A stretch of 64,000 nt of DNA from the NCBI GenBank assembly GCA_023898465.1, contig CP060223.1, forward strand, positions 832,001 to 896,000, given 5' to 3'. This DNA comes from Candidatus Nomurabacteria bacterium (GTDB lineage: Bacteria; Patescibacteriota; Patescibacteriia; HK-STAS-PATE-3). Shown one piece after another: positions 3,345 through 24,619 of this stretch; the first letter of the stretch is position 1, and the number at the start of each line of letters is the position of its first letter. The notes beneath the pieces are model-generated. The model saw nothing but the letters and a program-made list of their open reading frames with translations, had not been told where the DNA came from and did no database searches. The translations under genes and the position numbers were made by a program.

Positions 3345-3370
3345 TTCTTTCCACCAAAGAGGAGATTCGC

Positions 3371-3628: not shown

Positions 3629-3636
3629 TCCTCGAA

Positions 3637-4920: not shown

Positions 4921-6335
4921 GACTGTTTTTGTAGGCTAATATTCTGCACCGCTACCATCAAACCAAAGAGGAACCAGATATGCATGATGAAGAGAATGGA
5001 GAAAGTGTTGTACTGAATAAGTATACCAATAAAAGCAAGAAGGAGAGCAAACATCACCGCACGCAGATATGGATCGCGACTATATCGAATCGCTTTGATT
5101 GATCGCCAGAACAGCACAACCAACAAGGAGAGATAGGCAAAGAAGCCAAGGAGGCCCGTCTCAGCCAAAAGCTCCAGAAACTCATTATTCACAATCAACC
5201 AACCATTGGGCGGCTGGACCAGTGCAATATCAGCCACAGCTGGGCCAAAGTTACCAACTCCTACGCCAAGATAAGGATGGGCCTGGAACAAATCCCACGC
5301 TTGGGTAAAGGTCTCGGCACGATCAAAGTAAGAAGCGCCACTAAAAATATCCGTCGCCTGTTTAGTAAAGGTATCAACCGACTCCTGAGTATCACCGCTG
5401 AGACCGAGGAACTGCACTGCTCCCCATCCAACAATCAAAGCAACAACTACCCCGAGCACAATCCAATGCGGAGTAAATACCTTTTTCCAATACACTAAAG
5501 CTAAAATCATGAGCATGACCGCAAAGGAGATGTAGGCGCCACGAGAAAGAGTCAGCACAAAGTTCACACCCAGTAACAGTATAAAGGCGACCAGGAAGAG
5601 ACGCGATTGCTTGCCCTTACCTGAAAGCACAAAAACTAGCGCAAGACTCAATGGGATCAACAAAAAGTTTGCGTAGTAAAGTGGCTCGAGAAAAGTCGAT
5701 TGAATGCGTGGGAAACCAAATACGTCGCTGGTGTAGAGATCACGTAAGCCGGTCAGAGAAGGAGGTAGGCCAACTAAATCTCCCATGAACTGATAAAGCC
5801 CAAATACACCGATGATGCTAGTGCTCACGAAAAGGATAGTAATGAGCTTATCCAAATCATTGCGTCCCCGGATAAGCTGCGGTACTAACCAACTCACAAT
5901 AACAGTAAAGGCAACAAAGACCCAAACCGTTGTTGCTCGGAAAGCATTCTCTGCCTGACTAATCGACACCAGCGCAATGAGTAAGAAGAGGACTCCTAAC
6001 CAAAAAGTTGGATTAGGTCGGAAACTCCATCGCTTACGTGTAAGAAGGAGGAGCAACCAAGCTACTAAAGTTAGCCCTCCAAATACCTGACTGGAACGTA
6101 GGGTAAATCCAGCAATATCAACTGACCCTACCCGCTCAAAAGGCAGGAGAAAAACCACCGCCAACAAACCAAAGCGCGGTGAACGCACCGTTAGGTACAC
6201 TAGCACTAAAAAGATACATAAGCCGATAATGCTGCTAAAGCCGAGTATGCCAAATTTTGCGACAGCAGCAGCGCCAAATAGGGTCAGAATACTACCGAGC
6301 AGCCAACTAGGCCATGTGGTGGGGAGGATTTTCAT
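4917..6335 (-). CDS. O-antigen ligase / Wzy-like family membrane protein (paralog 2)
   Basis: 472 aa polytopic protein with a LSRGAYISFAVML-like Wzy_C block. Overlaps the GT2 gene end. Confidence 0.55.
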   Translation of the reverse strand: MKILPTTWPSWLLGSILTLFGAAAVAKFGILGFSSIIGLCIFLVLVYLTVRSPRFGLLAVVFLLPFERVGSVDIAGFTLRSSQVFGGLTLVAWLLLLLTRKRWSFRPNPTFWLGVLFLLIALVSISQAENAFRATTVWVFVAFTVIVSWLVPQLIRGRNDLDKLITILFVSTSIIGVFGLYQFMGDLVGLPPSLTGLRDLYTSDVFGFPRIQSTFLEPLYYANFLLIPLSLALVFVLSGKGKQSRLFLVAFILLLGVNFVLTLSRGAYISFAVMLMILALVYWKKVFTPHWIVLGVVVALIVGWGAVQFLGLSGDTQESVDTFTKQATDIFSGASYFDRAETFTQAWDLFQAHPYLGVGVGNFGPAVADIALVQPPNGWLIVNNEFLELLAETGLLGFFAYLSLLVVLFWRSIKAIRYSRDPYLRAVMFALLLAFIGILIQYNTFSILFIMHIWFLFGLMVAVQNISLQKQS

Positions 6336-7227
6336 GCTTATGCTTTAGCATACCATATCGACGGAGGCCAGCCCGAAATCCCCAATACGGCGTCAGTAAC
6401 CAGTCAGGATGCCCTTTTCCATAGTAAAACATGCAAGAAAGGATTGCCCGTAGCTTACGCAAGAAAAAATGTGGGAGCTGCCAGCGAGAAAAATGCTTCA
6501 GCATGAAATAAAATTCGTTGGCAAAAAAATCTTCATACCATTGTCGGCGCTGGGCATTGCGACTGCCACCACTATGATAGGCCAGGTGCACCACAGTCAC
6601 GGTCGGATCAAAGACAAGCTTCCAGCCAGCCTTCACCACGCGGAGAGAAAAATCCGTCTCTTCCCGCATTGCATTCCCTACAAACTGCGTATCAAAACCA
6701 CCGGCCTGATGTACCGCCTCAGCCCGAAAAGACATGTGCCCACCACGAGGCGCGTTAATTTCCACCCGTTCATGTCCTGTTGCATTTGCGTATACCCGAC
6801 CGGTCTCATCGACCCAACACGCTCGACCGCTTTGCTCTTTATTCAGCTGAGTATTTCTATCTTCGACTCGACCGCCAACTCCACCTATCTCTGGATCAGC
6901 ATAATTTACCACGTGCTTCTGGAGCAGGAGCGGGTCACGAACCTCAGTATCATCATCGAGGAAAAGAAAAATCGAACCGTTTGCATGCTCTACTCCAACA
7001 TTCCGTGAGTGACAAGTCCCTTTTGCTTCAACGTGATGATACTGTACTTTCTTTGGATGTTCAGCCACCATCGACTGTAGGGCTGTATTTACCACTGCGC
7101 TTGAATCAACTACCACAATTTCATAATCCGGATAATCCTCTTGTAAGAGATCCTTTACCAAGGCAAGGACGATTTCTGGACGATTCAAGGTTGGAATGAT
7201 AACTGAGACCTTTGGCGTGTTAGACAT
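6307..7227 (-). CDS. Family 2 glycosyltransferase (GT2)
   Basis: VSVIIPTLNRPE...VVDSS...DDD(TE) motifs of GT-A fold GT2. Start chosen at MSNTPKV (7227) because the longer ORF start overlaps the flippase. Confidence 0.8.
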   Translation of the reverse strand: MSNTPKVSVIIPTLNRPEIVLALVKDLLQEDYPDYEIVVVDSSAVVNTALQSMVAEHPKKVQYHHVEAKGTCHSRNVGVEHANGSIFLFLDDDTEVRDPLLLQKHVVNYADPEIGGVGGRVEDRNTQLNKEQSGRACWVDETGRVYANATGHERVEINAPRGGHMSFRAEAVHQAGGFDTQFVGNAMREETDFSLRVVKAGWKLVFDPTVTVVHLAYHSGGSRNAQRRQWYEDFFANEFYFMLKHFSRWQLPHFFLRKLRAILSCMFYYGKGHPDWLLTPYWGFRAGLRRYGMLKHKHENPPHHMA

Positions 7228-8671
7228 CGGGCCCTCCACTCTCTGATCCACCGAAGCGACTAGGCAGTAACTCGCGAATCAATTGCGCATCAAAGCCCTT
7301 CACTAAATAGAGGGCTGCGGCGTACACACCAAACGCAAAAGCCACCTGCACCAAAACGTGCATGCTCGAAGTTAACCAAATCACTGCGGCCATAGGTATA
7401 CTCGCCGCCAGGGCACGTAACGCGTACTTGAAATGAAGCTGGAAACCAACTCGACGACGAATCAACCAGTAACCAACAAACATGATAGTGAATTCGGTTA
7501 ACACGGTTCCCACTGCCGCACCATAATATGAAAAAGGAGGAATGAGCACAACGTAACTGATTAGCCCAAGGGCTGCCACCACGAGATACGCCCAAACCAT
7601 TTTACGCTGGGCATTAATTGCCACGATAGTGTGTCCAGATAAACTACCAAGGAAGAGGAAACCAACAGCAAAAATAAGCACCTGGAAGATTGGGCCGGCC
7701 GCGGCGTACTCCTCACTGCCACTGATGAAAGCAATGAGAGGCCCGGCAATTAAAAAGCCGCCGATGATTAGAGGAATCGTTGCCATGAGTAGTGCATCAA
7801 AAGAACGCTGGAACACATGAATGAAGCGTTCGCGTTGCACAAAAGCTGTCGCAGTTAACACTGGTAGGAGTAAGCCAACAAACATGTTGGGGAAGGTGAT
7901 GAGAATTTCCAGCACCTTATAGGCTGCTCCGTATAAGCCCACATCTTCAGCCGGCTTCATGAGCGAAAGGAAAATGGTATCGAGCCGGAAGTATAAAAGG
8001 TTTAATACTACCGAGAGTGCTAAGGGAGCCGTCTCTTTCAATATGTAGCCCCAGTACGGCCAATCAAAACGGAGTCGAATTGGCTCATACTTTAATGCTG
8101 CGGCAAAAGAGATAAAGAAATTTGTGGCACTACCCAATACCACCGCAGCAATGATGGCCAACAGACCCATCTGCAATGCAATGACTCCCATAACTCCACC
8201 CAGTAATACGACGCGGCCGGCCACCTCCCCTAAGACCACCCAGCGCATGGCCAGATGCTTTTGAAAAATGCCAACCAGCAACTGATTCATGGCAATGAAG
8301 AAAAAGGAAAATACTCCGACCACCATACCTTGGCGAACCAGTGGACCATAAGGAAGGAGGAAGGCGATAAGTAGGCCAATGCCTAACAAAAGCACTGCTG
8401 CAAAAATTCGGACACCGAGAATATTCCCTATCGCGTGCTCAGCATTTGCCTCTGGCTTAGAAATCTCTCTCACCAAAATTAAGTACAAGCCAAGGTCCGC
8501 TACAACGGAGAAAAAGCCAAGATAGGCAATTACTGTCGTGTAATATCCATACTCACCAGGACTGAGGTAACGCAGCATAAGAACCACGGTAATGAAACCG
8601 AGGGCAGTGCCAATCACCTTGCCAATAAACTGCAAAATCGTATTGCGTCCAACTTGTCCAGCTAAACTCAT
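7220..8671 (-). CDS. Polysaccharide biosynthesis flippase (Wzx-type, MOP superfamily)
   Basis: 483 aa with about 12-14 TM segments. The N-terminal LQFIGKVIGTALGFITVVLMLRYLSPGEYGYY region is typical of Wzx/RfbX proteins. Confidence 0.75.
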   Translation of the reverse strand: MSLAGQVGRNTILQFIGKVIGTALGFITVVLMLRYLSPGEYGYYTTVIAYLGFFSVVADLGLYLILVREISKPEANAEHAIGNILGVRIFAAVLLLGIGLLIAFLLPYGPLVRQGMVVGVFSFFFIAMNQLLVGIFQKHLAMRWVVLGEVAGRVVLLGGVMGVIALQMGLLAIIAAVVLGSATNFFISFAAALKYEPIRLRFDWPYWGYILKETAPLALSVVLNLLYFRLDTIFLSLMKPAEDVGLYGAAYKVLEILITFPNMFVGLLLPVLTATAFVQRERFIHVFQRSFDALLMATIPLIIGGFLIAGPLIAFISGSEEYAAAGPIFQVLIFAVGFLFLGSLSGHTIVAINAQRKMVWAYLVVAALGLISYVVLIPPFSYYGAAVGTVLTEFTIMFVGYWLIRRRVGFQLHFKYALRALAASIPMAAVIWLTSSMHVLVQVAFAFGVYAAALYLVKGFDAQLIRELLPSRFGGSESGGPDV

Positions 8672-8811: not shown

Positions 8812-9585
8812 ATGGCACGCACGTCCTTTGCTGCTGGTACCATGCCTTCCCTGAAGGGCGAAGAAGAGTACTTCGGTACACAAGATCGGCTTTCAGCGAT
8901 TCTCAACTCACATGGACAAACCCAGGTCCCTGGAGGACCGGAGCTATACCTGCCCCGCTCAGTTGCGGAAGATCGGCAAGTGCCTGTCCGCGGAAATCCA
9001 CCGAATCTGCCACGCGAGCTGGATCACGTCAAAGGCATCATGCCGATTCCGGAAGATGTCCCGGCTGGCGCATATCAGATCTACCTGGTCTATGTCGATC
9101 CCGGATATAGCTACCAGGCAATACAGCGAGTTCTCGCTAGAGACACCGTCCGGCATCCGGCCTTGGTCATTGCCTGCAATGAACTTGATATCCTGGTAGC
9201 GTCGGACGAGCTGTCTCCGTACTGGATCTGGCTTGCCTTTGGCACCACGTCTGCGGGAGTGAGTCCGGCCGACGTTCTGCACACGCTACCACGGGGCGCT
9301 GTTCCTCTCACGATTGTGGAGTGCATGCATCTCCTGGTCCAATACGATTGTCGTGAACTTCTTTCAGACGGCGCTATTCTCTGCGCCGGATCGAGAAGTA
9401 CCAACGGCACACTACCGCTACTGCACTTCCACTCCGCCTTTCCGTTCCGATGGGTGCGCCGTGATCAACCGATCAAGCATCATCCAAACTCGACGCTTCG
9501 GGCAACTACCCTCAACTTCTTCACGCCTTTCCGTCTTCCCCTCAATGACTACAAAGGGAAGCCGGGTAGCGCCGCGAATAACTGA
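8812..9585 (+). CDS. Hypothetical protein (high-GC), no recognisable domain
   Basis: SD gaaggag 7 nt before ATG at 8812 (MARTSF...). Elevated GC. Followed by a hairpin terminator. Confidence 0.45.
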   Translation: MARTSFAAGTMPSLKGEEEYFGTQDRLSAILNSHGQTQVPGGPELYLPRSVAEDRQVPVRGNPPNLPRELDHVKGIMPIPEDVPAGAYQIYLVYVDPGYSYQAIQRVLARDTVRHPALVIACNELDILVASDELSPYWIWLAFGTTSAGVSPADVLHTLPRGAVPLTIVECMHLLVQYDCRELLSDGAILCAGSRSTNGTLPLLHFHSAFPFRWVRRDQPIKHHPNSTLRATTLNFFTPFRLPLNDYKGKPGSAANN

Positions 9586-9593
9586 GCTCCAAC

Positions 9594-9640
9594 GCCTGAT
9601 ACTTACTAGTGTCAGGCGTTTTCCTTTTTCATAAGATTGC
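9594..9640 (+). terminator. Rho-independent terminator (aacgcctga ... tcaggcgtt then ttcctttttc)
   Basis: 9-bp stem plus a T-rich tail, read directly. Confidence 0.65.
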
Positions 9641-12513: not shown

Positions 12514-12909
12514 ATGCGACGTTTCTTTTTGGCACTAGGCTTTTTGAGTGGCTTGGGACTCGTGCTCGGCGCTTTCTGTTTCTTCGTCCACATTACCGTG
12601 GACTGGCATGAGAGTCGAAATGAGGTACATCGCATCGGCAACATCGCCAGTCATATCATCAAAGTGAAGGAGGCAACGGGCGAATGGCCGAGCAGGATCG
12701 AAGGCGATGAAACCGACTTCTGGGGCCAACACTATCAAGTGATTCGCGAAACAGCAAGCGTCTGCGCCCTTGTCTCAAAAGGGCCAAACGAACGACTGGA
12801 CACAAACGGTCGCTCGCTGATCAACAGGAAGAAAAATGGAGATGACATCGTCATCTTGATCGAGTCTCAAACGGAGGGACAGGGATTTGTCCAACAAGTG
12901 CTACGCTAG
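12514..12909 (+). CDS. Hypothetical membrane-anchored protein (131 aa), high-GC
   Basis: SD ggaggga before the ATG. N-terminal TM helix. No known motif. Confidence 0.45.
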   Translation: MRRFFLALGFLSGLGLVLGAFCFFVHITVDWHESRNEVHRIGNIASHIIKVKEATGEWPSRIEGDETDFWGQHYQVIRETASVCALVSKGPNERLDTNGRSLINRKKNGDDIVILIESQTEGQGFVQQVLR

Positions 12910-12940
12910 GAGATGAGGCAGTATTGTAGGGATACAGTAC

Positions 12941-13026
12941 TGCTTTTTCTTTTACCACGGCGAGGCAGAGAAGTCCCACCTATGTGTTTATTATTACCCA
13001 ATAGCCAAGGCGTCCCGGCCTTGGCA
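12941..13026. repeat. REP-like structured repeat, copy A (core acggcgaggcagagaagtccc...cccaatagccaaggcgtcccggccttggc)
   Basis: 85-90% identical to the copies at 13882-13966 and 16604-16686. Contains the imperfect palindrome gccaaggc-gtc(c/t)cg-gccttggc and terminal 8-bp inverted repeats (gagacgcc/ggcgtctc in copies B and C). Sits immediately after a terminator T-run. Confidence 0.7.
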
Positions 13027-13052
13027 GTTTTTTTCTTTTACCTTACGCATTG

Positions 13053-13082
13053 ACAATTTTCGTATTTTAGGGTAGAATGCTC
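13053..13082 (+). promoter_or_regulatory. Consensus-like sigma70 promoter TTGACA-17-TAGAAT
   Basis: ttgacaattttcgtattttagggtagaat read directly. Confidence 0.65.
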
Positions 13083-13167
13083 AGTCATAATCTGACACCG
13101 TTTTTTGACACCGTTGACGGAAAGTCGTCAACAAGAACTCACGCAACCCTATCAGAGGAGGGGCGTC

Positions 13168-13803
13168 ATGTGCGACTTGATCCGGGTATACTTCGACTGT
13201 ATGCGACACGGGGAGAGGGAGGGAGATCAACTCACCGCCCTCGGAACCAGGCAGGTCTCTGCCTCGGCTGAGGCCAACCTGGCTGGAACGCGCTATCTCT
13301 TGGCCTTCCACACAGGGATGACCCGCACTTACCAGACCGCCGAGACTATCCTTTCTACCCTGGAGGGGGCCGGCTCCTTGACCCCTCGAGCAGAAGAGGG
13401 CTTCGGCGTGGTTTGGGCACTGAATCAAAAGTGGCCTATCCAGACCGCCCAAGACCAGATCAAGAGTCTCGTAGCCAGCGGCGCTGCTGAGACTGCCGCT
13501 CTTTGGACCTCCTCCTGGCCACCCGCCCTCGCCATCCTTGGACGCTTCCTTGGCACGCTGGAGAAGTGGACAACCTATGCAGCCATGCGTGCTGCTGAAG
13601 ACGGATCACCGGTCGGTGATGGAGTCCGGTTCTTAGTGGCCAGCCACAGCCCCTGCGCTGAACTCGCCGCCCTCGATCCTTCCGCCACTCCGCGTCTCGG
13701 CCCGGCTGACGGTATCACCTACGAAATCGAGGTGGACATCAGAAACCTCGGGATAGTGATCACCTCCTCCGAGGTCTGGCGCTGCCCCGAAGGAGTCGAG
13801 TAG
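13168..13803 (+). CDS. Histidine phosphatase superfamily protein (phosphoglycerate-mutase-like branch)
   Basis: Perfect SD gaggagg before ATG at 13168 (MCDLIRVYFDCMRHGEREG...). The RHGE catalytic motif sits near the N-terminus and a later ASHSP His motif follows. High-GC. Confidence 0.55.
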   Translation: MCDLIRVYFDCMRHGEREGDQLTALGTRQVSASAEANLAGTRYLLAFHTGMTRTYQTAETILSTLEGAGSLTPRAEEGFGVVWALNQKWPIQTAQDQIKSLVASGAAETAALWTSSWPPALAILGRFLGTLEKWTTYAAMRAAEDGSPVGDGVRFLVASHSPCAELAALDPSATPRLGPADGITYEIEVDIRNLGIVITSSEVWRCPEGVE

Positions 13804-13857
13804 CTTTCCCGCTCTTTCGCCCTGAGACGCTCAGCGTCTTCACCCGGGCACCCGAAG

Positions 13858-13888
13858 CCGTAGACTTCTCCAGTCTGCGGCTTTTTTC
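13858..13888 (+). terminator. Rho-independent terminator (ccgtagac-ttctcca-gtctgcgg then cttttttc)
   Basis: 8-bp stem with one mismatch plus a T-run, read directly. Confidence 0.6.
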
Positions 13889-13966
13889 TTTTACCACGGC
13901 GGGACAGAGACGCCCCTCCTATGTGCTTATTATTACCCCATAGCCAAGGCGTCTCGGCCTTGGCGG
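13882..13966. repeat. REP-like structured repeat, copy B
   Basis: See copy A. Core acggcgggacagagacgcccctcctatgtgcttattattaccccatagccaaggcgtctcggccttggcgg. Confidence 0.7.
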
Positions 13967-13987
13967 AGCTTATGAAGACTTGAAAAA

Positions 13988-14016
13988 AACACATGTTCGT
14001 GTATGATGGCCTCGAT
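13988..14016 (+). promoter_or_regulatory. sigma70-like promoter TTGAAA-16-TATGAT
   Basis: Read directly upstream of the 14059 gene. Confidence 0.5.
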
Positions 14017-14058
14017 CACATAATGTACCTTGCAGATAACAAGTAGGAGGTATCAGAC

Positions 14059-14391
14059 ATGTCTGGCTTCGGAATTTCCCTCACTGAATATGAGATAGGA
14101 TTCAGCTCTCAGGATCCTTGGAGTTTTACTGACAGACTCTCCCGATTGGGAGTCATGACCACCCATGGCCTGATCGTCGGGGAACTGTCATCAGGACAGG
14201 GTGACGCGATTCTCTGGATCGATGAAGCATCTCTCTCATCAGTCCCGATCCAATGGGTCGTTCCAAAATCAGCCCACACACTTCATGGAGTCACCACACA
14301 CATTGTGGAAATTCCTGAAGATGAAATCATTTGCTTCGCCGATCCTCCCAAGCCGATCCGTGCCTATGGCATAGACCCCGGACTTCTATGA
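14059..14391 (+). CDS. Hypothetical protein (110 aa), high-GC
   Basis: SD aggagg 7 nt before the ATG. No known motif. Confidence 0.45.
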   Translation: MSGFGISLTEYEIGFSSQDPWSFTDRLSRLGVMTTHGLIVGELSSGQGDAILWIDEASLSSVPIQWVVPKSAHTLHGVTTHIVEIPEDEIICFADPPKPIRAYGIDPGLL

Positions 14392-14411
14392 CTGTCCACT
14401 ACGACACCCAT

Positions 14412-14445
14412 CACTTCCTGATAGGGTGTCTTTCTTTTACATTGA
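14412..14445 (+). terminator. Rho-independent terminator (gacaccc ... gggtgtc then tttctttt)
   Basis: 7-bp stem plus a T-run, read directly. Confidence 0.55.
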
Positions 14446-14448
14446 CCC

Positions 14449-14478
14449 AATACCTCATTCTTGCTAATCTGGGCCCGC
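14449..14478 (+). promoter_or_regulatory. sigma70-like promoter TTGACC-17-TAATCT
   Basis: Read directly upstream of the 14540 gene. Confidence 0.5.
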
Positions 14479-14539
14479 TACTGCTAGCACTTGAGAGTCT
14501 AGCTCATTGGAAATTGAATCCAACCAGTGAGGGAAACAC

Positions 14540-15028
14540 ATGCGACTCCAAATCACCGTGACGAATGATGTCGACGTCGACGTCATTCATCGAGTTCTCA
14601 AATCCCCTGCGTTCGCCAACAAGCTCTTCCATGAGATCGTCGGCACGCTCTTTCCTGAACAGACGGTGGGGCCAGCCGAGTTCATGATCGAGGAGCCGGT
14701 ACGAGCACTGGGCTGTGTCCCTGAGACGCCTCTCGGGATCCGACTCACCCTACTCGAAGTAAGGCAGGATAGGATCCCGGTCAAGACCTTCCACCAACTG
14801 GTGGCAAAGATGACTGAGCTACTCGGAACCGCCTTGACTGCCTACCTTGGACCCAGGGCGGGTCATGTTCAGACCTGCAGCTTCCTGATGCTCGACCGCG
14901 CCATCGAAACGACGCCTGGTAGCGGGATACTGAGCACGGTCATCAACTCGGAACCTCGCTGGGTCGACCTGAGGACCTACCCCGGAGTCACCGAGTCCGC
15001 TACGACGCCGGTCGGAGCCTGCGGCTAG
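14540..15028 (+). CDS. Hypothetical protein (162 aa), high-GC
   Basis: SD gagggaa before the ATG. No known motif. Confidence 0.45.
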   Translation: MRLQITVTNDVDVDVIHRVLKSPAFANKLFHEIVGTLFPEQTVGPAEFMIEEPVRALGCVPETPLGIRLTLLEVRQDRIPVKTFHQLVAKMTELLGTALTAYLGPRAGHVQTCSFLMLDRAIETTPGSGILSTVINSEPRWVDLRTYPGVTESATTPVGACG

Positions 15029-15041
15029 CCGCGACCACAAA

Positions 15042-15080
15042 ACACCCGATTGCTTTACGTAATCGGGTGTCTTCCTTTTC
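15042..15080. terminator. Bidirectional hairpin terminator (acacccgatt-N9-aatcgggtgt) with T-runs on both strands
   Basis: 10-bp stem. cttccttttc follows on the plus strand and tttt on the minus strand (complement of caaaa at 15038-15041). Lies between convergent genes. Confidence 0.6.
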
Positions 15081-16043
15081 TTAAGATCCAAATACATTCT
15101 CAAATAAAACGCCAAGCGGATTACTGAGAATCCAAAGTAAGTACGCGTAGCCAAATAATTGTAGCGCCACAAGCACCAACACAAGTGACCAAATACTCGC
15201 CGCAATCCATAGCTCAACCTTCCCCATCTTCCAGCGCTCACGTTTCAAAATGTGTCCCATAACTAACTGAACACCCCAGATCAATATAGTAATAACGATA
15301 CCAACCACGGTAATACCGCTACCAACTTTGGCAACTAAGAGTATGTTCTTAAACTGTTGGAATTTTTTTGCTGCTAAGGCCCCAACTGCAGCTGCATCAG
15401 CAGCGCCTCGGACACCTTCTCCTCGTAGGAGAGCCTCGGCACCACTGGCCACTCCACGGGCTCGGGCTTGACCGAGCCCACGCTTCAAGGCTCTTTGTTC
15501 TGCTACCTTACCTAAGCGAGTGGTTGGTTGGGAAGCCTTTTCCTGTTGGGTAATTTCATCGCCTAGTTTACCTCCAACTTTATCTACTAGTCTCTGGCCT
15601 ATAGAAGGATCTTTTGTCGTTGTTCTAGGCTGCGCTGCTTTATTCGCGACCTCTCCGTTCCTTGCTCGTTTTAGTGCCGCCTGATTATATTGCTGAGGCC
15701 TCTGTTTACTTGAAACAGAATTGGCAGGCTGCGCACTAGTTTGTGTTGCATCTTGCCCTGCAAAAGCTTGAGAGGGTGAGTTTACTTGTGCCTCGTCTTG
15801 TGATTCCTGTACATCAGCCTGAGCATGACCAAGACTATCTGCAGCAATCGCTGTGCCTAGATTAGCCGCATCATTAAAAGGCGTCCCGGTTGCTAAAATA
15901 GGTCGTATGTTTTGCGGATTGGCTTTTTTTTGACGCGCCCGACGTCGTAAACGACTCAACAAACGTTGCTGCACCTCTGGATTTCGAGGCTCAGTCGCTT
16001 GTGTGCCAGTCCCTCGCGATTGTGTTTGTTGCTCCATGCTCAC
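15081..16043 (-). CDS. Hypothetical membrane protein: long Q/A/S-rich low-complexity N-terminal region plus 3-4 C-terminal TM helices
   Basis: 320 aa. Compositionally biased N-terminal two-thirds. Hydrophobic C-terminus (ILLVAKVGSGITVVGIVITILIW...). Confidence 0.45.
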   Translation of the reverse strand: MSMEQQTQSRGTGTQATEPRNPEVQQRLLSRLRRRARQKKANPQNIRPILATGTPFNDAANLGTAIAADSLGHAQADVQESQDEAQVNSPSQAFAGQDATQTSAQPANSVSSKQRPQQYNQAALKRARNGEVANKAAQPRTTTKDPSIGQRLVDKVGGKLGDEITQQEKASQPTTRLGKVAEQRALKRGLGQARARGVASGAEALLRGEGVRGAADAAAVGALAAKKFQQFKNILLVAKVGSGITVVGIVITILIWGVQLVMGHILKRERWKMGKVELWIAASIWSLVLVLVALQLFGYAYLLWILSNPLGVLFENVFGS

Positions 16044-16173
16044 TAAACTGTACGAAAAAAAAGACTTTCGAGCAAGTTCAAGATAAAATCACTTGCTGAT
16101 CAAATAAACATAGAGTAGTATGCATTTGTCGGGGTTCTACCGACTTTGCACCTTCGCATCGAAGGAGGTCTCC

Positions 16174-16380
16174 ATGCATTCATTGCTCACTTTCAGCGTT
16201 TCAGTCGCTGCATACATCGTCTTTGTGATCCTATCGGCCCGCTTCTGTGGAATGAACGATCGGGCTATGCGGCTCGCCGGTTTGATTGATCGGGTTTCTT
16301 ACCCGTCCAAGATCGAGCCCGAAGACAAATCGGCGTGGCCCCGCGCTCGCACCAAGGAGGAAGTGCCATTAGCGAGTTGA
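16174..16380 (+). CDS. Small membrane protein (68 aa)
   Basis: SD gaaggagg before ATG at 16174 (MHSLLTFSVSVAAYIVFVIL...). A hairpin terminator follows. Confidence 0.4.
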   Translation: MHSLLTFSVSVAAYIVFVILSARFCGMNDRAMRLAGLIDRVSYPSKIEPEDKSAWPRARTKEEVPLAS

Positions 16381-16394
16381 TCTCAGAACCGGTC

Positions 16395-16432
16395 TGACGC
16401 CGTACCTAGCAAGGTGCGGCGTCTTCTTTATG
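16395..16432 (+). terminator. Rho-independent terminator (gacgccg ... cggcgtc then ttctttatg)
   Basis: 7-bp stem plus a T-rich tail, read directly. Confidence 0.5.
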
Positions 16433-16994
16433 TAAAACCTTTTTCCTCATATGCGTGATAAGAAGACCAATTCCAATCCTTTGGATCTTTTACCAAGCTA
16501 GCACGTACTGGATTGTAGTGGATATAATGAATGAGATGGTGGAGATATTGGTCAGTATCTACTACGCGGTCATAAAAAGAATCTTGCCATATCTTTTTCA
16601 TGCGACGGCGGGACAGAGACGCCCCGCCTATATGTTTATTATTACCCATAGCCAAGGCGTCTCGGCCTTGGCGGGGTATATCGGCGTCTCGGCCTTGGCG
16701 AGACTTATACATTTGTTGAGTCGTATAACTTTTAATACTATGCATCACCTCCGACACATTCTTCTTCCCTATTATCTCAAACAACACATGGATGTGATCT
16801 GGCATCACCACGTAGGCTAGCAGCCGTATCCAATGTTTCTTATGCAAGAAGAACAGAGTCTCAACGACAATCCTGGAGAGTTCTTTATTCAAGAATAGCT
16901 TTTTCCGTCGGTGGGTATTTGCGGTGACAAAATACACCCTTGTTTCAGCGTTGTAGGTACGACGAAGACGAGACATGAGGACACCTCGTGCCAC
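16428..16994 (-). mobile_element. REP-associated tyrosine transposase (RAYT / TnpA_REP, IS200-IS605 Y1 HUH family) carrying an in-frame REP-like insertion of about 33 codons between the HuH and catalytic-Tyr regions
   Basis: Co-linear with E. coli RayT motifs: VYFVTANTHRRKKLF, AYVVMPDHIHVLF (HuH), IWQDSFYDRVV and DTDQYLHHLIHYIHYNPVRASLV...DWNWSSY. The segment SRQGRDADIPRQGRDALAMGNNKHIGGASLSRRR is encoded by repeat copy C. Confidence 0.75.
16604..16710. repeat. REP-like structured repeat, copy C (core plus a partial tandem 3-prime hairpin) inside the RAYT coding sequence
   Basis: acggcgggacagagacgccccgcctatatgtttattattacccatagccaaggcgtctcggccttggcgggg followed by tatatcggcgtctcggccttggcgagac. 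Confidence 0.7.
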
Positions 16995-17039: not shown

Positions 17040-17624
17040 CTACCCATACTTCGCCAGAAGTAATCGGGCTGCCTCGCGAATATCTTCCACCCGGTAAAAG
17101 ATAAACTTACCTTGCGTGCTAATGCCCCATTCTAGTATTAATCCCTTCTTCGGCATACGGCACGCCAAGAGAATACGTTGTTTTTCAGCAGGGCTAAGAA
17201 ATTTTTTTAACCCAATGCTTTGGGTGAGTTTACCTTTTTGATAGGTGTAACTAGCTGTCACTTTCCCATAGCGCATGAGGTTCACAATTGGGCCACGAGT
17301 TGCTTCAATAACTACGCGATCACGCTCCAGTAAAATTGTGCCGCCTTTTTTCCATTTCCATGAAGGGTAGACAACAAACAAGGCGCGATGAGGGTGCTCG
17401 CGCTGCAGACGATCAACAGTGGCGGCAACTTTACTTGGTGCCACCCAATTCGCATACAAGTTTTTCCACGGACCACCGCGTACTTCCACAGTGCGAATTG
17501 TCCAGCCACGATATGCATCAATGTTTTGAATACCACGCAGCTCTTTTGAAGAACGCACAAATTGCCACTCAGGATGAGGTAGACCAGCTGCGTCTATTTT
17601 CTTTAGCCCTTGTAGGATGGTCAT
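17040..17624 (-). CDS. Truncated ATP-grasp-like protein related to the PEP-synthase/PPDK N-terminal nucleotide-binding domain (lacks the Gly-rich loop)
   Basis: AAGLPHPEWQFV resembles the aGlPVPpGFvi segment. VVIEATRGPIVNLMRYGKVTASYTY aligns with LIIEAGFGLGEAVVSGQITPDSYVV of the gene at 33780-34745. 4-nt overlap with the upstream gene. Confidence 0.4.
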   Translation of the reverse strand: MTILQGLKKIDAAGLPHPEWQFVRSSKELRGIQNIDAYRGWTIRTVEVRGGPWKNLYANWVAPSKVAATVDRLQREHPHRALFVVYPSWKWKKGGTILLERDRVVIEATRGPIVNLMRYGKVTASYTYQKGKLTQSIGLKKFLSPAEKQRILLACRMPKKGLILEWGISTQGKFIFYRVEDIREAARLLLAKYG

Positions 17625-19231
17625 AACTTACGGACAATTCCTTTCGTTGCATCGACCTCCACTTGGTCACCGTCTTTCAATACTTTGGTAGCAATCTTTG
17701 TGCCAATGACGCAGGGGATTTTTAGCTCCCGAGAAACAATGGCTGCATGCGAAGTTACGCCACCCTGCTCGGTCACAATCGCTGCAGCTTTTTTCATCGC
17801 TGCTACAATGTCCGGGTCAGTAGCAATCGAAACAAGAATATCACCGCGTTGCATTTTTGCCATATCCTTTGGACGAATAATAATCTTAACTCGTCCAGTC
17901 GCTTTTCCTACACAACCTGTCTGACCATGAAGCTCTTCACTTGATTCGTGCTTCATAGACTGCAACTGCTTCTTCATTCTCTTTGCTGCAGCGCCTACGA
18001 GAATAGTATCCCTATTCTTTTCACTGATGTAGACGCATTCTTTCACTCGTTGTTTCAGCATCGATCGAGATAAATGACCACGAGTTAAGGCGGCATGAAC
18101 TTCTTTAGGCAACATGAAGCGCATTTCTTTGAGTGAAATGTGGAGACGCCGGGCAATTTCTTTTTGCAAAAATTCCATTTTATAAAGTGCATATATCTGC
18201 GCAAAGCGACGATAAATTTTTGTTACCATGAAATCACCAAAGGCTAAGAAAAGCGTTTTCCATTTTCCGCTAATTCGGTATTGTCGCAGGTAGCGTTCAC
18301 GCAAACTATTTGCAGTCTGTAATTTCTTCTTTTCCTCTTTGAGCAACGCGGCGATGTCAGACTTCTGACCAATAAGTTTCACCAGCTCTTTTAGGTAGTA
18401 CGTAAAATGCGCAGTTTCACCAATCCACATCCTCGGTACATAGAAGTAGCTCGCATAATGCTTTTGTATACGTTTCAGTATTTCCGGACTTATCGCATCT
18501 ATCAATTGGTCAGCTCGCTGCTCTAGACCATGCTCAAATTCTTCGGTATGCGTTTGCCAGCCATAGGGTCCTGCTTCTTTATTTAAGAAAGTAGAATATA
18601 TATCAGCGAATAATTTTTTCTGTTTGGCATTTTTTTGTATGGCAAAAGCAATGTGCAAAAAATCTTCACGTTCTTTCTGAATCAGTGAAATGCTTCGTGG
18701 ATGAGTGAGCGCGACAAACACCTCATTTACTTTTGCTTCAGGTACTCCTTGCGTTGCTAAATACTGCTTCATCCGATCAGTGAGGTTGTTGTGAAACATA
18801 TCTGCAGCAACCGGTATCCAACACCACTGATAGTACTCCGTGTGCAAACGATCATGCTCAGTATATAATTGCCACAACTTAGTATTACTCTGCTTCTCTA
18901 AGCCCGTCTCGGGTAGCTTTTCAGTAAAGCGTCGTAAGCGATCTGCTTGATGCAGTATCTCTTTATTTACTTGTGTGGCAAAGGCAGGCTCTTGAATAAA
19001 ACGATTAACAATGTGATCGCCCTCGGTCTTCGCATCATCGTGATCATAATAAAACCAGAGATGGTAGCCCTGGTAATAAGTAGCCACTCGTTGATACGCT
19101 CGTCCATTCGGTTTTGCAAACTCATTAGTAAAACATGACAACCAGATTTGCGAAAAAGCAAAATCAATATCTGGAATATCCTCAGCTAGCATCCAATTGA
19201 TACTTTGCTTTTGTATTTTAGGAGAGCTCAT
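17621..19231 (-). CDS. PEP-utilising-enzyme mobile (phosphohistidine swivel) domain protein, paralog C: novel ~440-aa helical N-domain plus C-terminal His domain
   Basis: C-terminus GGVTSHAAIVSRELKIPCVIGTK matches the PpsA/PPDK/RPH phosphohistidine domain. No ATP-grasp or PEP-binding TIM-barrel motifs. Confidence 0.7.
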   Translation of the reverse strand: MSSPKIQKQSINWMLAEDIPDIDFAFSQIWLSCFTNEFAKPNGRAYQRVATYYQGYHLWFYYDHDDAKTEGDHIVNRFIQEPAFATQVNKEILHQADRLRRFTEKLPETGLEKQSNTKLWQLYTEHDRLHTEYYQWCWIPVAADMFHNNLTDRMKQYLATQGVPEAKVNEVFVALTHPRSISLIQKEREDFLHIAFAIQKNAKQKKLFADIYSTFLNKEAGPYGWQTHTEEFEHGLEQRADQLIDAISPEILKRIQKHYASYFYVPRMWIGETAHFTYYLKELVKLIGQKSDIAALLKEEKKKLQTANSLRERYLRQYRISGKWKTLFLAFGDFMVTKIYRRFAQIYALYKMEFLQKEIARRLHISLKEMRFMLPKEVHAALTRGHLSRSMLKQRVKECVYISEKNRDTILVGAAAKRMKKQLQSMKHESSEELHGQTGCVGKATGRVKIIIRPKDMAKMQRGDILVSIATDPDIVAAMKKAAAIVTEQGGVTSHAAIVSRELKIPCVIGTKIATKVLKDGDQVEVDATKGIVRKL

Positions 19232-20331
19232 GCTCCTAATCTTCGCACAATTCCCTGGTTCGCGTCTACTTCTACGAGATCGCCGCTTTGTAGACTACTG
19301 GTAGCAAATTTTGTACCAATAACGCAAGGAACTTTCAACTCCCGGGCTACGATTGAAGCGTGACTAGTCACTCCACCTTCATCAGTAACAATCGCCCCAG
19401 CTCGCTTCATGGCTGGTATATAACGCGGATCAGTCATTGAGGTTACTAAAATTTCGCCCTGGCGTAGTTTTGTAGCATCGGCGATTTTTTGAATTAAACG
19501 CACTTTGCCTTTTACCTTGCCAGGGAAAGCCACGTTGCCCTTGAGTAGCCCCTTCGTTGCTTTCGGTAATGACAAACCAAAGCGTTTCAATGCGCTAGCT
19601 GAATTTGAGTACGCATATACGTTTTTGCCTTGCTTCAACACAAAACGTTTTCTTCGATTACGTAGCCTTTTTATCGACGGGAGTTTTCCAGAATTTAAGT
19701 ACTCAGTAAATTCACTAAGTAGCAAATACTCCAAAACCTCTATTGCGAGCTTTTCAGACTTTTCAATTTGACGCAGTAATCTTTTCTGCAAATCAATACC
19801 TACCCGGTAAAAGTCAGCTCCTTGTGCACGGCCTTGTAAGAAGAGTTTCAGGACTGCGGGAGTAACTTGATCTGAAACAAACTCTGGCACTTCGATACAA
19901 GCAACTAAGAACGGTAGAGCATCGTGAAAATATTCATGCAATTGAAGTATCGCCGCTTTCGGATCAGCGTGCTCCTGTTGTACAAATATATTATACGAGC
20001 GAAGTAAGGCATCGTGCTGCTTTTTTTGCTGCTTCAGTTTTGCCAGCGTACCATGTGTTTTTACCCAACCTTGCGCTGCGCCTTGTAAATCTTCATCCGC
20101 CATAAAGTGCCATAAAACACCATTCTCAACATACACATGGATTGGGCGAATCTGATGCGAAAAAAAATCTCGTGAAGCTTTATTAAGAAATGCTTCAATA
20201 ACTACTGAGGTTGCTAATACAGTATAATCTCTTTGATGTGGGGTATAGTGAAGCTTCATAGCTTTTACTCTAGCACATAATTCAGCACTCTTATCAAGAA
20301 AGAGGCGGCAGTTCATATTGACTGCCGCCAT
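19228..20331 (-). CDS. PEP-utilising-enzyme mobile domain protein, paralog B (shorter N-domain, 367 aa)
   Basis: C-terminus GGVTSHASIVARELKVPCVIGTK. 4-nt overlap with paralog C. Confidence 0.7.
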   Translation of the reverse strand: MAAVNMNCRLFLDKSAELCARVKAMKLHYTPHQRDYTVLATSVVIEAFLNKASRDFFSHQIRPIHVYVENGVLWHFMADEDLQGAAQGWVKTHGTLAKLKQQKKQHDALLRSYNIFVQQEHADPKAAILQLHEYFHDALPFLVACIEVPEFVSDQVTPAVLKLFLQGRAQGADFYRVGIDLQKRLLRQIEKSEKLAIEVLEYLLLSEFTEYLNSGKLPSIKRLRNRRKRFVLKQGKNVYAYSNSASALKRFGLSLPKATKGLLKGNVAFPGKVKGKVRLIQKIADATKLRQGEILVTSMTDPRYIPAMKRAGAIVTDEGGVTSHASIVARELKVPCVIGTKFATSSLQSGDLVEVDANQGIVRRLGA

Positions 20332-20610
20332 GTAGACGCGAGCCCCACAGAGCTCTTTCCCTAGGTCTGTCTACCTGACCGAGTTCGCCCAAAGACGATC
20401 TCCTGCTGTTTACCTCTTTCGAGGTGGCTTGGACTTGCTCCGCATGAGGGGACAGCAGTTATTCCTCGCAACGGGGTCCCACACCCGAGACTTCCGGTTG
20501 GCCGTATCCGTTGCAGCTTCTTGAAGAACAATGCGGAGTCACCGCGAAGTCTCGATTAGGACAATGCCACCCGCTTCTTCATGAGAGAAACCTCCCTTCC
20601 ATCAAAAAGC
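20332..20610 (-). promoter_or_regulatory. Internal promoter (extended -10 TGgTATTAT) plus a ~270-nt GC-rich structured leader with a tiny SD-preceded ORF (MKKRVALS)
   Basis: Minus-strand reading: ttgctc-N18-tggtattat, then gggagg-N9-atgaagaagcgggtggcattgtcctaa. Downstream lie a 9-bp long-range stem (cgagacttc/gaagtctcg), a GNRA hairpin (cctc-gaaa-gagg) and a palindrome (agagctct). GC is far above the flanks. Confidence 0.35.
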
Positions 20611-20661
20611 CATGGCATTAAAAATAATACCACGCTGTACTTATACTGGCGAGCAATTTTT

Positions 20662-22227
20662 TTACAACTTTCTGACTAAACCCTTGGTAGCATCCACTTC
20701 CACCTTGTCACCATCCTTCAAAATCTTATTCGCTACCTTCGTCCCTACTACGCAGGGCACACCAAGCTCGCGCGAGACAATAGCCGCATGTGAAGTCAAA
20801 CCTCCGGCGTTGGTCACGATTGCAGCGGCTAGCTTCATTGCTGGTACCAGACTGGGATAGGTTGTCTCAGAAACCAAAATATCACCTTTTTTCATTTTTG
20901 GAATATCCGCCGGCACCTCAATAATTTTTACCGTACCAGAAGCAGCTCCCGGAGAAGCGCATGAACCCGTTAGCTCACTTGCCTCGGTGGTAATCAAGGT
21001 ATCCTCTTTAGGAATTTCTTTCATGAACTTCTTTGCCTTCTGACCAGTCAAAACGATATATTGCTTCTTATCGCAATACGCCACTGTCTCCCGAGTTCGC
21101 GCCAGCAGCTCTTTCATAGTCGGGATCGACTTCCCTTGGAGCAAATCCTCAATCTCCCATGAGTTCAGGGCTCGCACAGTTTCCAAAGTCAGCTTATGTC
21201 GCTGAGCAATTTCACGGAAGAATGGTTCATAGCAGTACATACCATGATAGAGTGCGCCTTTTCGAAATTCCTTTATGTACACTATTTCTTGTCCCATGCG
21301 GATGAGCTGCCATATATTGCCTTGGAGGTGTAGAGATTTTTTTAATCGAGCCTGTTTTTGCTTCAGGAGCCTTTCCTTCACCTTCATATCAGCCAAAATC
21401 TGTTTGGGTGACTCACCGCTCTTTAGTAATTCCCTCCAACGAGTGAGGAAGTAGCGAAAGGAATAAGCTGGCCCCTTATACGCGTAGGGAATCCATCGCC
21501 ATTTCTCATAGTGCGCTCGCAGTAAAGCAGCTACTTTTTGATCCACTTCTGCTAATCCCTTTTCGGCCTTTGCGATGGGCGAACGAAGTAGGTGATTTCG
21601 CACCTTAGCAGAGCGCCGAAGCTGATCAGTAATCTGCAAAAACTCTCTTTCCTCCTGCGCAGCAAAACTCAAGCGGGGTGGGCTAGTAAGTAAACTAAAT
21701 ATTTCCGGCAAGGTTGCTGAGTCACCATAACAATCAATTTGTTTCTTGAGCGCTGCTTCTATACCTGTTGACACGCGGGCCTGATCAGCATCAGCCAACC
21801 AAGTGACCGCCGCACCGACCCCGTGGGAAAGTACATGCCAGCGTAAGACCTTACGAAACTCTCGAAGTAACTGTACATCAGTCATCTCACGGATTGGCAG
21901 TGCATATAAATTCCGAGAAGCCTGCATGAAGTTGATTGACCAATCCTCAACCTGCTTCAAGGTCTTTAATCCCCATTGTGGCTTTTGCAACATCTTCTGC
22001 GATAAGCCATCGGCCTGGGTATCAAATTCAGATCGCCGAAACCACATCTGAGAAAAGTCACCTTTGTAGTAGGTAAAGTACTCACTCAGGTGTCCGCCGA
22101 GTCCCATTCGCTTCCATTCCAAAAGAAAAAAGCGAATCGGCGTCCCCATCATAAAAATAGTATTTTCAGTTATTTCAGCTGGGACAAACCACTTGTCACT
22201 TTGCTTTTTTATGGCCTTTTTACCCAT
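20662..22227 (-). CDS. PEP-utilising-enzyme mobile domain protein, paralog A (521 aa)
   Basis: C-terminus GGLTSHAAIVSRELGVPCVVGTK. Overall collinear with paralog C. Confidence 0.7.
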   Translation of the reverse strand: MGKKAIKKQSDKWFVPAEITENTIFMMGTPIRFFLLEWKRMGLGGHLSEYFTYYKGDFSQMWFRRSEFDTQADGLSQKMLQKPQWGLKTLKQVEDWSINFMQASRNLYALPIREMTDVQLLREFRKVLRWHVLSHGVGAAVTWLADADQARVSTGIEAALKKQIDCYGDSATLPEIFSLLTSPPRLSFAAQEEREFLQITDQLRRSAKVRNHLLRSPIAKAEKGLAEVDQKVAALLRAHYEKWRWIPYAYKGPAYSFRYFLTRWRELLKSGESPKQILADMKVKERLLKQKQARLKKSLHLQGNIWQLIRMGQEIVYIKEFRKGALYHGMYCYEPFFREIAQRHKLTLETVRALNSWEIEDLLQGKSIPTMKELLARTRETVAYCDKKQYIVLTGQKAKKFMKEIPKEDTLITTEASELTGSCASPGAASGTVKIIEVPADIPKMKKGDILVSETTYPSLVPAMKLAAAIVTNAGGLTSHAAIVSRELGVPCVVGTKVANKILKDGDKVEVDATKGLVRKL

Positions 22228-22640: not shown

Positions 22641-23321
22641 ATGGCGAATATCGTCGTCTTTGATCCGATCCGTGAACATTTCAGTGACTACATGATTGGG
22701 CTAGCCAGTCATCAGGTTATCGTGAGAAATACGGTCGAGGACGTCAATGGGACGCTCCGATCCTTCTCACCCGACCTGATCCTGGTAGCTGAATCAGAGC
22801 AGTCAGCTGCCGTGATCGCGGCCGTGCAACGGAGTGATCGACGCATACAAGCGCCAACACTCCTTATCCCTGCATCACTCGAAGGACCTGATGACCAGCG
22901 ATGGCAACAGAGCCGTCAGCTCGGCGTCGCGGGATGGATCCCTCGACCTCAGCAACGAGGCTTCAAGTCACTCCTGGCTGAAGACTGGCGACGTAATATC
23001 GTCAGTCTCATGCTCTGGCTATGCAATCAGTTGCACCGAGAGCAACCACTGAGTGTGTGGTTCCGAGAACATCAAAGCGTCGTGGCTATGGTGGGCCAAG
23101 AAACCTATCATCGCCTCATCACCGGCTCATCCATCCAGTATGCACCCGAAGAATATCGTCGACTCCAGAGGACACTGGCAATCTGGGGAGTACGCTATCC
23201 GCTGGATCGCTATCTCCAGGCTGTCGCTCTTGCAGGACGCAAGGCAGAGGCACAGAGACTCTCAGATCGCGTGCTTACAAACATGGCGAGGCGCATGCTT
23301 TCGTCTGAAGCACAAGGCTGA
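22641..23321 (+). CDS. Receiver-like (pseudo-REC / CheY-like fold) domain protein, high-GC
   Basis: SD agggagg. N-terminus MANIVVFDPIREHF...SPDLILVAESE follows the REC pattern (hhhDD...PDhhhhD) but with D-P instead of DD. Confidence 0.4.
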   Translation: MANIVVFDPIREHFSDYMIGLASHQVIVRNTVEDVNGTLRSFSPDLILVAESEQSAAVIAAVQRSDRRIQAPTLLIPASLEGPDDQRWQQSRQLGVAGWIPRPQQRGFKSLLAEDWRRNIVSLMLWLCNQLHREQPLSVWFREHQSVVAMVGQETYHRLITGSSIQYAPEEYRRLQRTLAIWGVRYPLDRYLQAVALAGRKAEAQRLSDRVLTNMARRMLSSEAQG

Positions 23322-23352
23322 CTTCTACCATTCCTGCAAGGGAGGTTCTGAA

Positions 23353-24072: not shown

Positions 24073-24183
24073 CGCAACCCGAGGCGTCTACTTTCCCCAA
24101 GTAGGCGCCTTTCTTCTTGACTTTTTTATCTAAGTGGATAAACATGCCCACGGACACTGTTCGACAAACCATAGGAGGCGCAC

Positions 24184-24542: not shown

Positions 24543-24619
24543 GCCGCCATCGTCTAGTCTGGTCAGGACGCCAGGTTTTCATCCTGGTAACAGGGGTTCG
24601 AATCCCCTTGGCGGTACCA
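24543..24619 (+). tRNA. tRNA-Glu (anticodon UUC), CCA encoded
   Basis: Cloverleaf by eye: acceptor GCCGCCA/UGGCGGU (G1-U72 wobble), anticodon stem CCAGG/CCUGG with loop UUUUCAU, T-arm GGGGUUCGAAUCCCC. Body nearly identical to E. coli tRNA-Glu. Confidence 0.85.

Follow-up and report, generated by a model that had tools for sequence, protein, structure and literature searches.

GC-rich orphan genes with strong Shine–Dalgarno sequences form candidate moron-like cassettes in a Candidatus Nomurabacteria genome

The region analysed here is a 64,000-nt stretch of a Candidatus Nomurabacteria bacterium genome (Patescibacteriota; assembly GCA_023898465.1, contig CP060223.1, positions 832,001–896,000 of the forward strand), referred to below as the window and numbered from its first nucleotide. 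The window appears to hold two kinds of gene. Ordinary genes have a guanine-plus-cytosine (GC) content of ~46 %, mostly lack a Shine–Dalgarno (SD) sequence, are often of a leaderless type, belong to known families and lie mostly on the minus strand; alongside them are ~14 putative self-contained cassettes, each a GC-rich open reading frame (ORF) or ORF pair with a strong SD and, mostly, a hairpin terminator, the majority being lineage-restricted orphans. Our preferred interpretation, held with moderate confidence, is that these high-GC genes are lineage-restricted, horizontally acquired, moron-like cassettes, some of which are now stably inherited. We read them as foreign DNA because their nucleotide, codon and amino-acid composition is shifted, they use a different initiation signal, they are orphans, they differ from their neighbours in orientation, they occur in varied contexts and one slot has been swapped; the foreign origin itself, the donor, the mechanism of recombination and the use made of promoters, SDs and terminators are what we infer. 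Patescibacterial genomes are very small, and lineage-specific genes are believed to underlie the reliance of these bacteria on host cells. Little is known about the ways in which they acquire and express new genes, and a literature search found no description of a pattern of GC-rich, SD-led cassettes.

The high-GC class comprises 14 genes (7,554 nt, 11.8 % of the window; Table 1) with a GC content of 0.564, vs 0.458 for the rest and 0.471 for the window as a whole. GC is far from uniform: on a background of ~0.45, 1-kb windows rise to five peaks, 0.53–0.58 at 12.5–15.5 kb, 0.55–0.59 at 22.5–24.5 kb, 0.56 at 31.5–33.5 kb, 0.53 at 8.5–10 kb and 0.51 at 58–59 kb. Per gene, ordinary genes have a GC content of 0.41–0.49 and a GC content at third codon positions (GC3) mostly of 0.29–0.50; the high-GC members reach 0.505–0.642, with GC3 up to 0.95. 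An initial annotation, made from the sequence alone, had drawn attention to a cluster of these genes at 12514–16432 (hereafter the island) and to similar genes elsewhere in the window, putting the GC of the island genes 10–15 points above the surroundings; the excess is real in the sliding window and gene by gene, but its size ranges from 4 to 15 points. The same annotation had listed 22641–24432 as one high-GC gene, a region that is indeed GC-rich but consists of three genes (g226, g239 and the acyl carrier protein (ACP)-like g82), and it had not included 27706–28113 (−) and 58172–58312 (−). We considered g226 and g239 as paralogues and rejected this, as there is no similarity between them. 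The most extreme member of the class is g39 (58481–58600).

The shift extends to nearly every codon family, giving a strongly altered codon table (high-GC vs ordinary genes: ATC 0.68 vs 0.23, TTC 0.71 vs 0.30, TTA 0.03 vs 0.22), and to the proteins, which contain more Glu, Arg and Pro and less Lys, Asn, Ile, Phe and Tyr. Outside coding sequence there is little of this excess: spacers adjoining high-GC genes have a GC content of 0.46 and other spacers 0.42.

Translation starts separate the two kinds of gene even more sharply than the ‘perfect GGAGG-type SD’ of the initial annotation had claimed. An SD with at least five of six matches to AGGAGG at the right distance precedes 10 of 11 high-GC genes and 6 of 39 ordinary genes (Fisher p=7e-6), and an exact GGAGG is found before the start in 9/12 and 1/38, respectively; the spacing is correct for every member. 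The converse holds for a −10-like hexamer (TAnnnT) ending 4–12 nt before the start, which is present in 10 of 39 ordinary genes and none of the 14 high-GC genes, the frequency at random positions being 7.5 %. Ordinary genes with such a near-start −10 box and no SD include those starting at 22227 (−), 58120 (−), 61963 (−) and 55218 (−). The pattern suggests that leaderless mRNAs may be widespread among ordinary genes.

Orientation differs as well: 10 of 12 high-GC genes lie on the plus strand, vs 3 of 38 ordinary genes (35/38 minus). Because cassettes sharing an orientation are clustered, these 12 genes represent fewer than 12 independent units. A scan for a hairpin followed by a T-tract returned sites after g257, g131, g211, g162 and g68, and reading of the sequence added g110, g239, g82, g718, g39 and g46. 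Terminator-like sites, with a C-interrupted T-tract, therefore follow 11 units, consistent with the initial annotation’s claim that these genes carry a hairpin terminator of their own. Its claim of an own near-consensus promoter fared less well, standing for g211 (TTGACA-17-TAGAAT, 11/12) and g110 (10/12) only; matches upstream of other members are weaker, and the 11 promoter-like matches found overall are at chance level (9.8±2.9 expected).

As initially noted, most members have no recognisable domain. PHROGs, PADLOC and NCBIfam returned no match for the ten cassette proteins tested, and the only Pfam signal among those ten was a sub-threshold match of g211; the ACP-like g82 has a clear PP-binding domain in Pfam. 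Homology searches returned only the self match for g718 among 5.8e9 proteins (and no viral match), two homologues of g211 (65 % identity) and 13 distant homologues of g162 among 1.84e9 representatives. A tblastn search with 13 concatenated orphans found no match in 72,556 plasmids or 50,697 phage records, and viral contigs contained no relatives of g162, g718 or g211, the three families searched. We rejected a phage or plasmid origin on the strength of these empty PHROGs, PADLOC, viral-contig, plasmid and phage-record searches. Integration targeted to tRNA genes was likewise rejected, as only islet 2 of the window and 1 of the 24 g162-family loci scanned adjoin a tRNA gene; no integrase was found in Pfam scans of neighbouring genes. 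Among the high-GC genes, we found no common function or regulatory motif.

It is scarcely credible that the class is an artefact, either of a chimeric assembly or of non-coding GC-rich DNA with chance ORFs. High-GC DNA does yield long chance ORFs (antisense ORFs of 100–250 aa overlap g211 and g239), and most members lack comparative support. However, the island and its junctions are identical in independent assemblies (two sequencing runs, Logan), which excludes mis-assembly, and several lines of evidence point to coding function. The ratio of non-synonymous (dN) to synonymous (dS) divergence from relatives, omega, is 0.13 for g80, 0.31 for g131 and 0.16–0.33 for g211; g162 has a confident predicted fold and a conserved family, and g82 its domain; and all members scored have less GC at second than at first codon positions of the called frame, the correct SD spacing adding to this.

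Table 1. Coordinates and signals of the high-GC genes and of the other features of the window discussed here.
Feature	Position	Strand	GC	GC3	Signals and remarks
g80, Cys/His-rich small protein	3371–3613	+	0.584	0.65	SD AGAGGAG
g257, orphan	8812–9585	+	0.565	0.58	SD GAAGGAG; terminator 9591–9620
g131, small protein with N-terminal membrane/signal segment	12514–12909	+	0.515	0.61	SD TGGAGGGAG; no family match
Terminator-like hairpin and T-tract after g131	12915–12946	+			Terminator scan
REP-like copy 1, 86-bp insertion	12944–13029	+			Adjoins duplicated TTTTTCTTTTACC; empty site in L010
Promoter-like TTGACA-17-TAGAAT upstream of g211	13050–13078	+			11/12; top site in 10 kb scanned
g211, divergent, possible histidine-phosphatase-superfamily protein	13168–13803	+	0.616	0.70	SD GAGGAGG
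Terminator-like hairpin after g211	13854–13884	+			Terminator scan
REP-like copy 2	13883–13975	+			Also in L010
Promoter-like TTGAAA-16-TATGAT, g110 slot	13980–14007	+			Kept in L010 with SD and start context
g110, orphan	14059–14391	+	0.505	0.49	SD TAGGAGG; absent from L010
Hairpin ACACCC...GGGTGT and CTTTCTTTTAC after g110	14398–14439	+			TTGACC −35-like box directly 3′; sequence reading
g162, rare ~150-aa family	14540–15028	+	0.595	0.72	Absent from L010
Hairpin terminator common to g162 (+) and g320 (−)	15042–15070	.			Kept in L010
Host-type low-complexity membrane protein, 318 aa	15081–16037	−		0.36	No SD; −10 box 9 nt before start
g68, small membrane protein	16174–16380	+	0.546	0.62	SD GAAGGAGG
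Hairpin terminator between g68 and RAYT gene	16396–16423	.			Terminator scan
RAYT-type Y1 (HUH) transposase gene	16428–16994	−	0.443		Pfam Y1_Tnp E=1.3e-11
REP-like copy 3, duplicated hairpin half	16592–16712	+			In frame within RAYT ORF; encodes ...RQGRDADIPRQGRDALAMGNNKHIGGASLSRRR...
g226, orphan	22641–23321	+	0.55		SD GGGAGG
g239, orphan	23353–24072	+	0.61		SD GGGAGG; terminator hairpin 24083–24109
g82, ACP-like, PP-binding domain	24184–24432	+	0.578	0.77	SD TAGGAGG; own terminator
g135	27706–28113	−	0.52		SD GGGGGAGGG
g718, large acidic orphan	31548–33704	−	0.553	0.55	SD AAGGAGG; own terminator
g46, 46-aa ORF	58172–58312	−	0.51		SD GGAGGGG; terminator hairpin
g39, 39-aa ORF, very basic, Thr/Lys/Arg-rich	58481–58600	−	0.642	0.95	SD AAGGAGG; terminator

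Contigs from relatives bear on how these genes have been inherited. Two short contigs (L010 and L011) carry g211 homologues in the order glycosyltransferase, g131, g211. In L010, a close relative, the glycosyltransferase is 93 % identical in amino-acid sequence (dS 0.42, omega 0.08) and g131 is in place with 91 % identity (omega 0.31; 44 % identity in L011); g211, at 65 % identity (dS 0.80, dN 0.26, GC 0.62), has a non-synonymous rate ~8 times that of the flanking glycosyltransferase. Contig L044, from the same sample as L010, carries g80 at 90 % amino-acid identity with dS 0.38 and omega 0.13, its flanking Wzy gene having dS 0.42 and omega 0.10. Synteny between L044 (1–1914) and the window (2088–3302) ends just upstream of the g80 promoter, and L044 encodes a secreted protein of >591 aa where the window has a Na+/H+ antiporter gene. 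Proteins flanking the other islets fall in 90 %-identity clusters that have no member from any other organism.

The clearest turnover concerns g110 and g162. Both are missing from L010, where an unrelated GC-rich ORF of ~65 aa takes their place; the g110 promoter, SD and start context and the g162 terminator are kept around the new ORF. By this comparison of sequences, the g110/g162 locus is a slot whose coding content has been swapped within a conserved expression frame. The possibility that the ~65-aa ORF is a deletion remnant of g110 or g162 was rejected, as it has no significant similarity to them. The initial annotation had proposed a pool of horizontally acquired or fast-evolving genes; the relatives bear this out insofar as there is a distinct orphan set, turnover in one slot and fast evolution of g211, but with g80, g131 and g211 present in place several members are not recent insertions.

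GC-biased gene conversion at recombination hot spots could in principle raise the GC of such slots through biased repair, if they recombine often between strains. One slot has been replaced between conserved flanks, the dS of adjacent genes is uneven (0.16, 0.42 and 0.80) and the L044 synteny break lies just upstream of the g80 promoter, all of which conversion would accommodate. It fits poorly, however, because the spacers are not GC-enriched: islet spacers, promoters and 5′ untranslated regions (UTRs) stay near background (0.46 vs 0.42). Flanking ordinary genes are not enriched either, and the SD dichotomy, the amino-acid shift and orphan status are left unexplained, making gene conversion a very unlikely explanation.

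Under the preferred reading, that of acquired cassettes, the donors would most likely be GC-richer, SD-using bacteria, possibly other Patescibacteria, and the cassettes would occupy permissive slots between genes as autonomous, moron-like transcription units. Three fates may follow: purifying selection and vertical inheritance, as for g80; fast evolution, as for g211; or overwriting of the slot by recombination via the conserved promoter/5′ UTR and terminator, as for g110 and g162.

The g162 family extends the pattern beyond this organism. Its conserved motifs are RPAEYYVQxPD, GVxxRLTGVSR and IMLDxDIETxPGSG, and a metagenome scan (26 loci), together with two earlier loci and the window, gave 25 distinct loci. 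In 24 of these, the GC content of the family gene exceeds that of the flanks (mean excess +0.116); it ranges from 0.39 to 0.67 in hosts of 0.34–0.55, and the gene usually marks the highest GC at its locus. An SD usually precedes the family gene at loci whose other genes lack one. Gene GC follows host GC only to some extent (Spearman 0.58, slope 0.59), as expected for arrivals at different stages of amelioration. The compared loci have no flanking genes in common, and none of the other window orphans was found near g162-family genes elsewhere. In one genome (L014), the gene forms a single GC spike between PHP and GatC, and its GC3 is 0.68, that of the L31 and S2 ribosomal protein genes close by being 0.34–0.36; we rejected translational selection for high expression because these two genes have background GC3. 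A groundwater contig from Hainich (L031) has, at 271–7364, five small ORFs with a GC content of 0.63–0.67 and GC3 of 0.77–0.91, alternating with ORFs of 0.41–0.52 GC in a mosaic like that of the window, in an unrelated genome.

Several observations weigh against an acquired origin. The terminator T-tract motif is found after ordinary genes as well, so that the flanks look host-type rather than imported. No orphan homologue was found in any clearly GC-rich genome, plasmid, phage or viral contig, leaving the cassettes without a donor, and only one cassette swap was seen. In relatives, g80, g131 and g211 keep their positions, and g80 has diverged in the manner of its core neighbour; not every member of the class, then, is recent or fast-evolving. 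The GC3 of g211 remains at 0.66–0.72 in three lineages although synonymous sites are near saturation (dS ~1.8), and its fourfold sites have 8 GC-to-AT vs 6 AT-to-GC changes, with no clear AT drift (small numbers); this is not what passive decay of a recent import predicts. Finally, just one locus of the g162 family, whose flanks are very short, is without a GC excess, even though the members are only 30–60 % identical.

These points lead to a different reading, in which the high-GC genes are a native class whose GC is maintained by selection acting on mRNA, be it for stability, for structure or to escape AU-specific nucleases, with two initiation regimes in one cell; a strong SD would then be needed because SD-independent and leaderless starts require an unstructured, AU-rich region. 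The confinement of the excess to coding sequence, its retention in syntenic orthologues across saturated synonymous divergence, its presence in 24 of 25 g162-family loci whatever the host GC and the core-like evolution of g80 are all in keeping with such a class. So is mRNA folding: compared with synonymous-codon shuffles, the native sequences of high-GC genes form more stable structures (mean z score −2.1 vs −0.09 for ordinary genes, p=0.0014), the strongest values (−3.1 to −4.3) being those of 22641–23321, 23353–24072, 32905–33704 (−) and 12514–12909, with ordinary genes at ~0. Outside the window, however, the folding signal is modest: for the g162 family in other genomes z is −1.0, below zero (p=0.0004), and −0.34 for neighbours, a marginal difference (p=0.06). 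Amino-acid use is shifted too, as is more usual after prolonged GC pressure than under selection on mRNA. The genes are orphans, present in some relatives and missing from others, the g162 family occurs in a different context in each genome, and no shared function or regulatory motif was found for the class. We regard the native class as unlikely. Its fuller form, in which Patescibacteria keep selection-maintained, GC-rich, SD-dependent small genes with structured mRNAs in standard slots running from promoter and SD to terminator, with ORFs swapped by recombination between strains and the remaining genes SD-independent or leaderless, seems to us quite unlikely; if true, it would mean two translation regimes per cell and cassette exchange without a dedicated recombinase.

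The island also contains a repeat reminiscent of repetitive extragenic palindromic (REP) sequences and, at its right edge, a gene for a REP-associated tyrosine transposase (RAYT). The initial annotation had described the island as bounded by the repeats and the RAYT, and its genes as possibly mobilised with the repeat family; neither description is supported. The repeat (82–93 nt) occurs in three copies in 64 kb, vs 0 expected, and contains an 8-bp GC-rich hairpin, GCCAAGGC-N6-GCCTTGGC in copy 1, followed by a run of T. Copy 1 lies at the g131 terminator T-tract, bordered by a duplicated TTTTTCTTTTACC, and L010 (1469–1479) has the empty site; the element is mobile on its own. The two intergenic copies flank g211 only. 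Copy 3 is antisense within the RAYT ORF, between the HUH block and the tyrosine block: the RAYT aligns with E. coli TnpA-REP (4ER8) in two blocks, the C-terminal one around YIxxNPV, and ~34 RAYT residues without a counterpart in 4ER8 are accounted for by this copy.

That repeats and Y1 transposase move the genes as a unit is most improbable. Two direct copies do flank g211, with the RAYT at the island’s right edge, and the repeat is demonstrably mobile. But g211 has one flanking copy in L010 and none detected in L011, so that the gene is older than its flanking arrangement; the ten other high-GC genes of the window have no copy nearby; the RAYT itself has host-type composition, with a repeat inside its own frame; and the same gene was not found between the same repeats at other loci or genomes, nor was a repeat seen next to g162-family genes elsewhere. 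The system resembles the REP/RAYT pairs (REPtrons) of which E. coli TnpA-REP is an example, with a Y1/HUH homologue and short intergenic repeats that carry a GC-rich hairpin, lie directly 3′ of terminators and show insertion polymorphism. It differs in having only three copies in 64 kb, no inverted pairs flanking the RAYT and one copy inside the RAYT frame, and has no link to the GC-rich genes. We read the REP-like element as a separate small mobile repeat that inserts at terminator T-tracts and does not carry the GC-rich genes.

Two island proteins offer some indication of their nature. The initial annotation had called g211 a histidine phosphatase; the expected RHG and SH motifs are conserved, but the profile matches are sub-threshold or weak (Pfam His_Phos_1, E=0.0055, 16.8 bits, below the 21.7-bit cut-off; profile vs PDB, Sts-2, E=0.043). 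Residues 12–16 (MRHGE) and 157–162 (VASHSP) are invariant in all three homologues and would include the catalytic residues; the AlphaFold model (predicted local distance difference test score 48) was unusable. For g162, a confident beta-alpha-beta, tautomerase-like fold was predicted. The fold is like that of the tautomerase superfamily (4-OT/CHMI/cis-CaaD/MIF), but g162 has no detectable sequence similarity to it, no Pfam match and no N-terminal catalytic proline: none of the 15 aligned family members has Pro after the initiator Met, the proteins starting MK(L/F)K.... A 32-nt palindromic GACGTC/GTCGAC run at the 5′ end of g162 (14560–14591) encodes DVDVDV.

Among known systems, the cassettes are most reminiscent of phage ‘morons’, each of which is reportedly an ORF or ORF pair that brings its own expression signals, ends in a factor-independent terminator and is set between ordinary genes. 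Morons are also said to have a base composition unlike that of their neighbours and an often obscure function. The likeness lies in composition and in the terminator-like, and in some cases promoter-like, elements that appear to bracket the genes. Unlike morons, the cassettes lie outside a prophage, with no phage genes nearby, no PHROGs match and no phage or viral relatives; they are also GC-richer than the host, and the contrast with neighbouring genes extends to translation initiation. Horizontally acquired genomic islets and lineage-specific ORFans are like them in being orphans of unusual composition and codon use that turn over between close relatives, and one islet adjoins a tRNA gene. 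Acquired bacterial genes are usually AT-richer than their host, however, whereas the cassettes are GC-richer; they have no integrase, att repeats or identifiable donor, purifying selection keeps several of them stably in synteny, and the g162 family shows its GC excess in many hosts. Integron cassettes resemble them as an array of co-oriented small orphan ORFs with a hairpin-forming element after each. Here, no IntI was found among the Pfam-scanned genes, the hairpins are terminators or REP-like copies without an attC-like consensus, and the cassettes have their own SD and mostly their own terminator; integron cassettes are mostly promoterless.

The Pfam-annotated neighbours of the cassettes encode cell-envelope proteins, transporters and phosphoenolpyruvate (PEP)-utilising enzymes. 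Around the island are a flippase, two Wzy-like proteins and glycosyltransferases, and within it a host-type gene (15081–16037, −), whose C-terminus is 85 % identical in L010, breaks up the run of high-GC genes. Downstream lie three adjacent genes with a PEP-utilising mobile domain (17621–22227, −). The closest species representatives of the flanking PEP-utilising protein are metagenome-assembled genomes of Patescibacteria/Saccharibacteria, at ≤58 % identity; a patescibacterial relative (L005) has ~7 paralogous PEP-utilising matches within 21 kb, an expansion unusual for a reduced genome. ACP-like g82 is isolated, having no fatty-acid or polyketide genes in its vicinity, and is directly followed by a tRNA-Glu gene (24543–24619). 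An Rfam scan of the window returned two tRNAs only, apart from one borderline match to the ‘weev_FSE’ frameshift element (40.1 bits, threshold 40) at 24083–24109, which is the terminator hairpin after g239 and almost certainly a false positive. Further downstream (41273–54697, −) are three tandem paralogues of 356–373 aa with common repeat modules (period ~1.07–1.19 kb), which run on into the 3′ end of a neighbouring, internally repetitive ORF of 3,342 aa; these genes probably encode a family of surface proteins.

Here, the accessory genes can be recognised from sequence alone by three traits: GC enrichment limited to the ORF, a strong SD in a genome otherwise largely poor in them, and a terminator of their own. 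Genes of the g162 family bear these marks in many unrelated genomes. Should the traits identify acquired genes, the flexible gene pool of Patescibacteria could be mapped simply by looking for them; should selection maintain them instead, they would suggest that these bacteria have a second regime of translation and mRNA stability.

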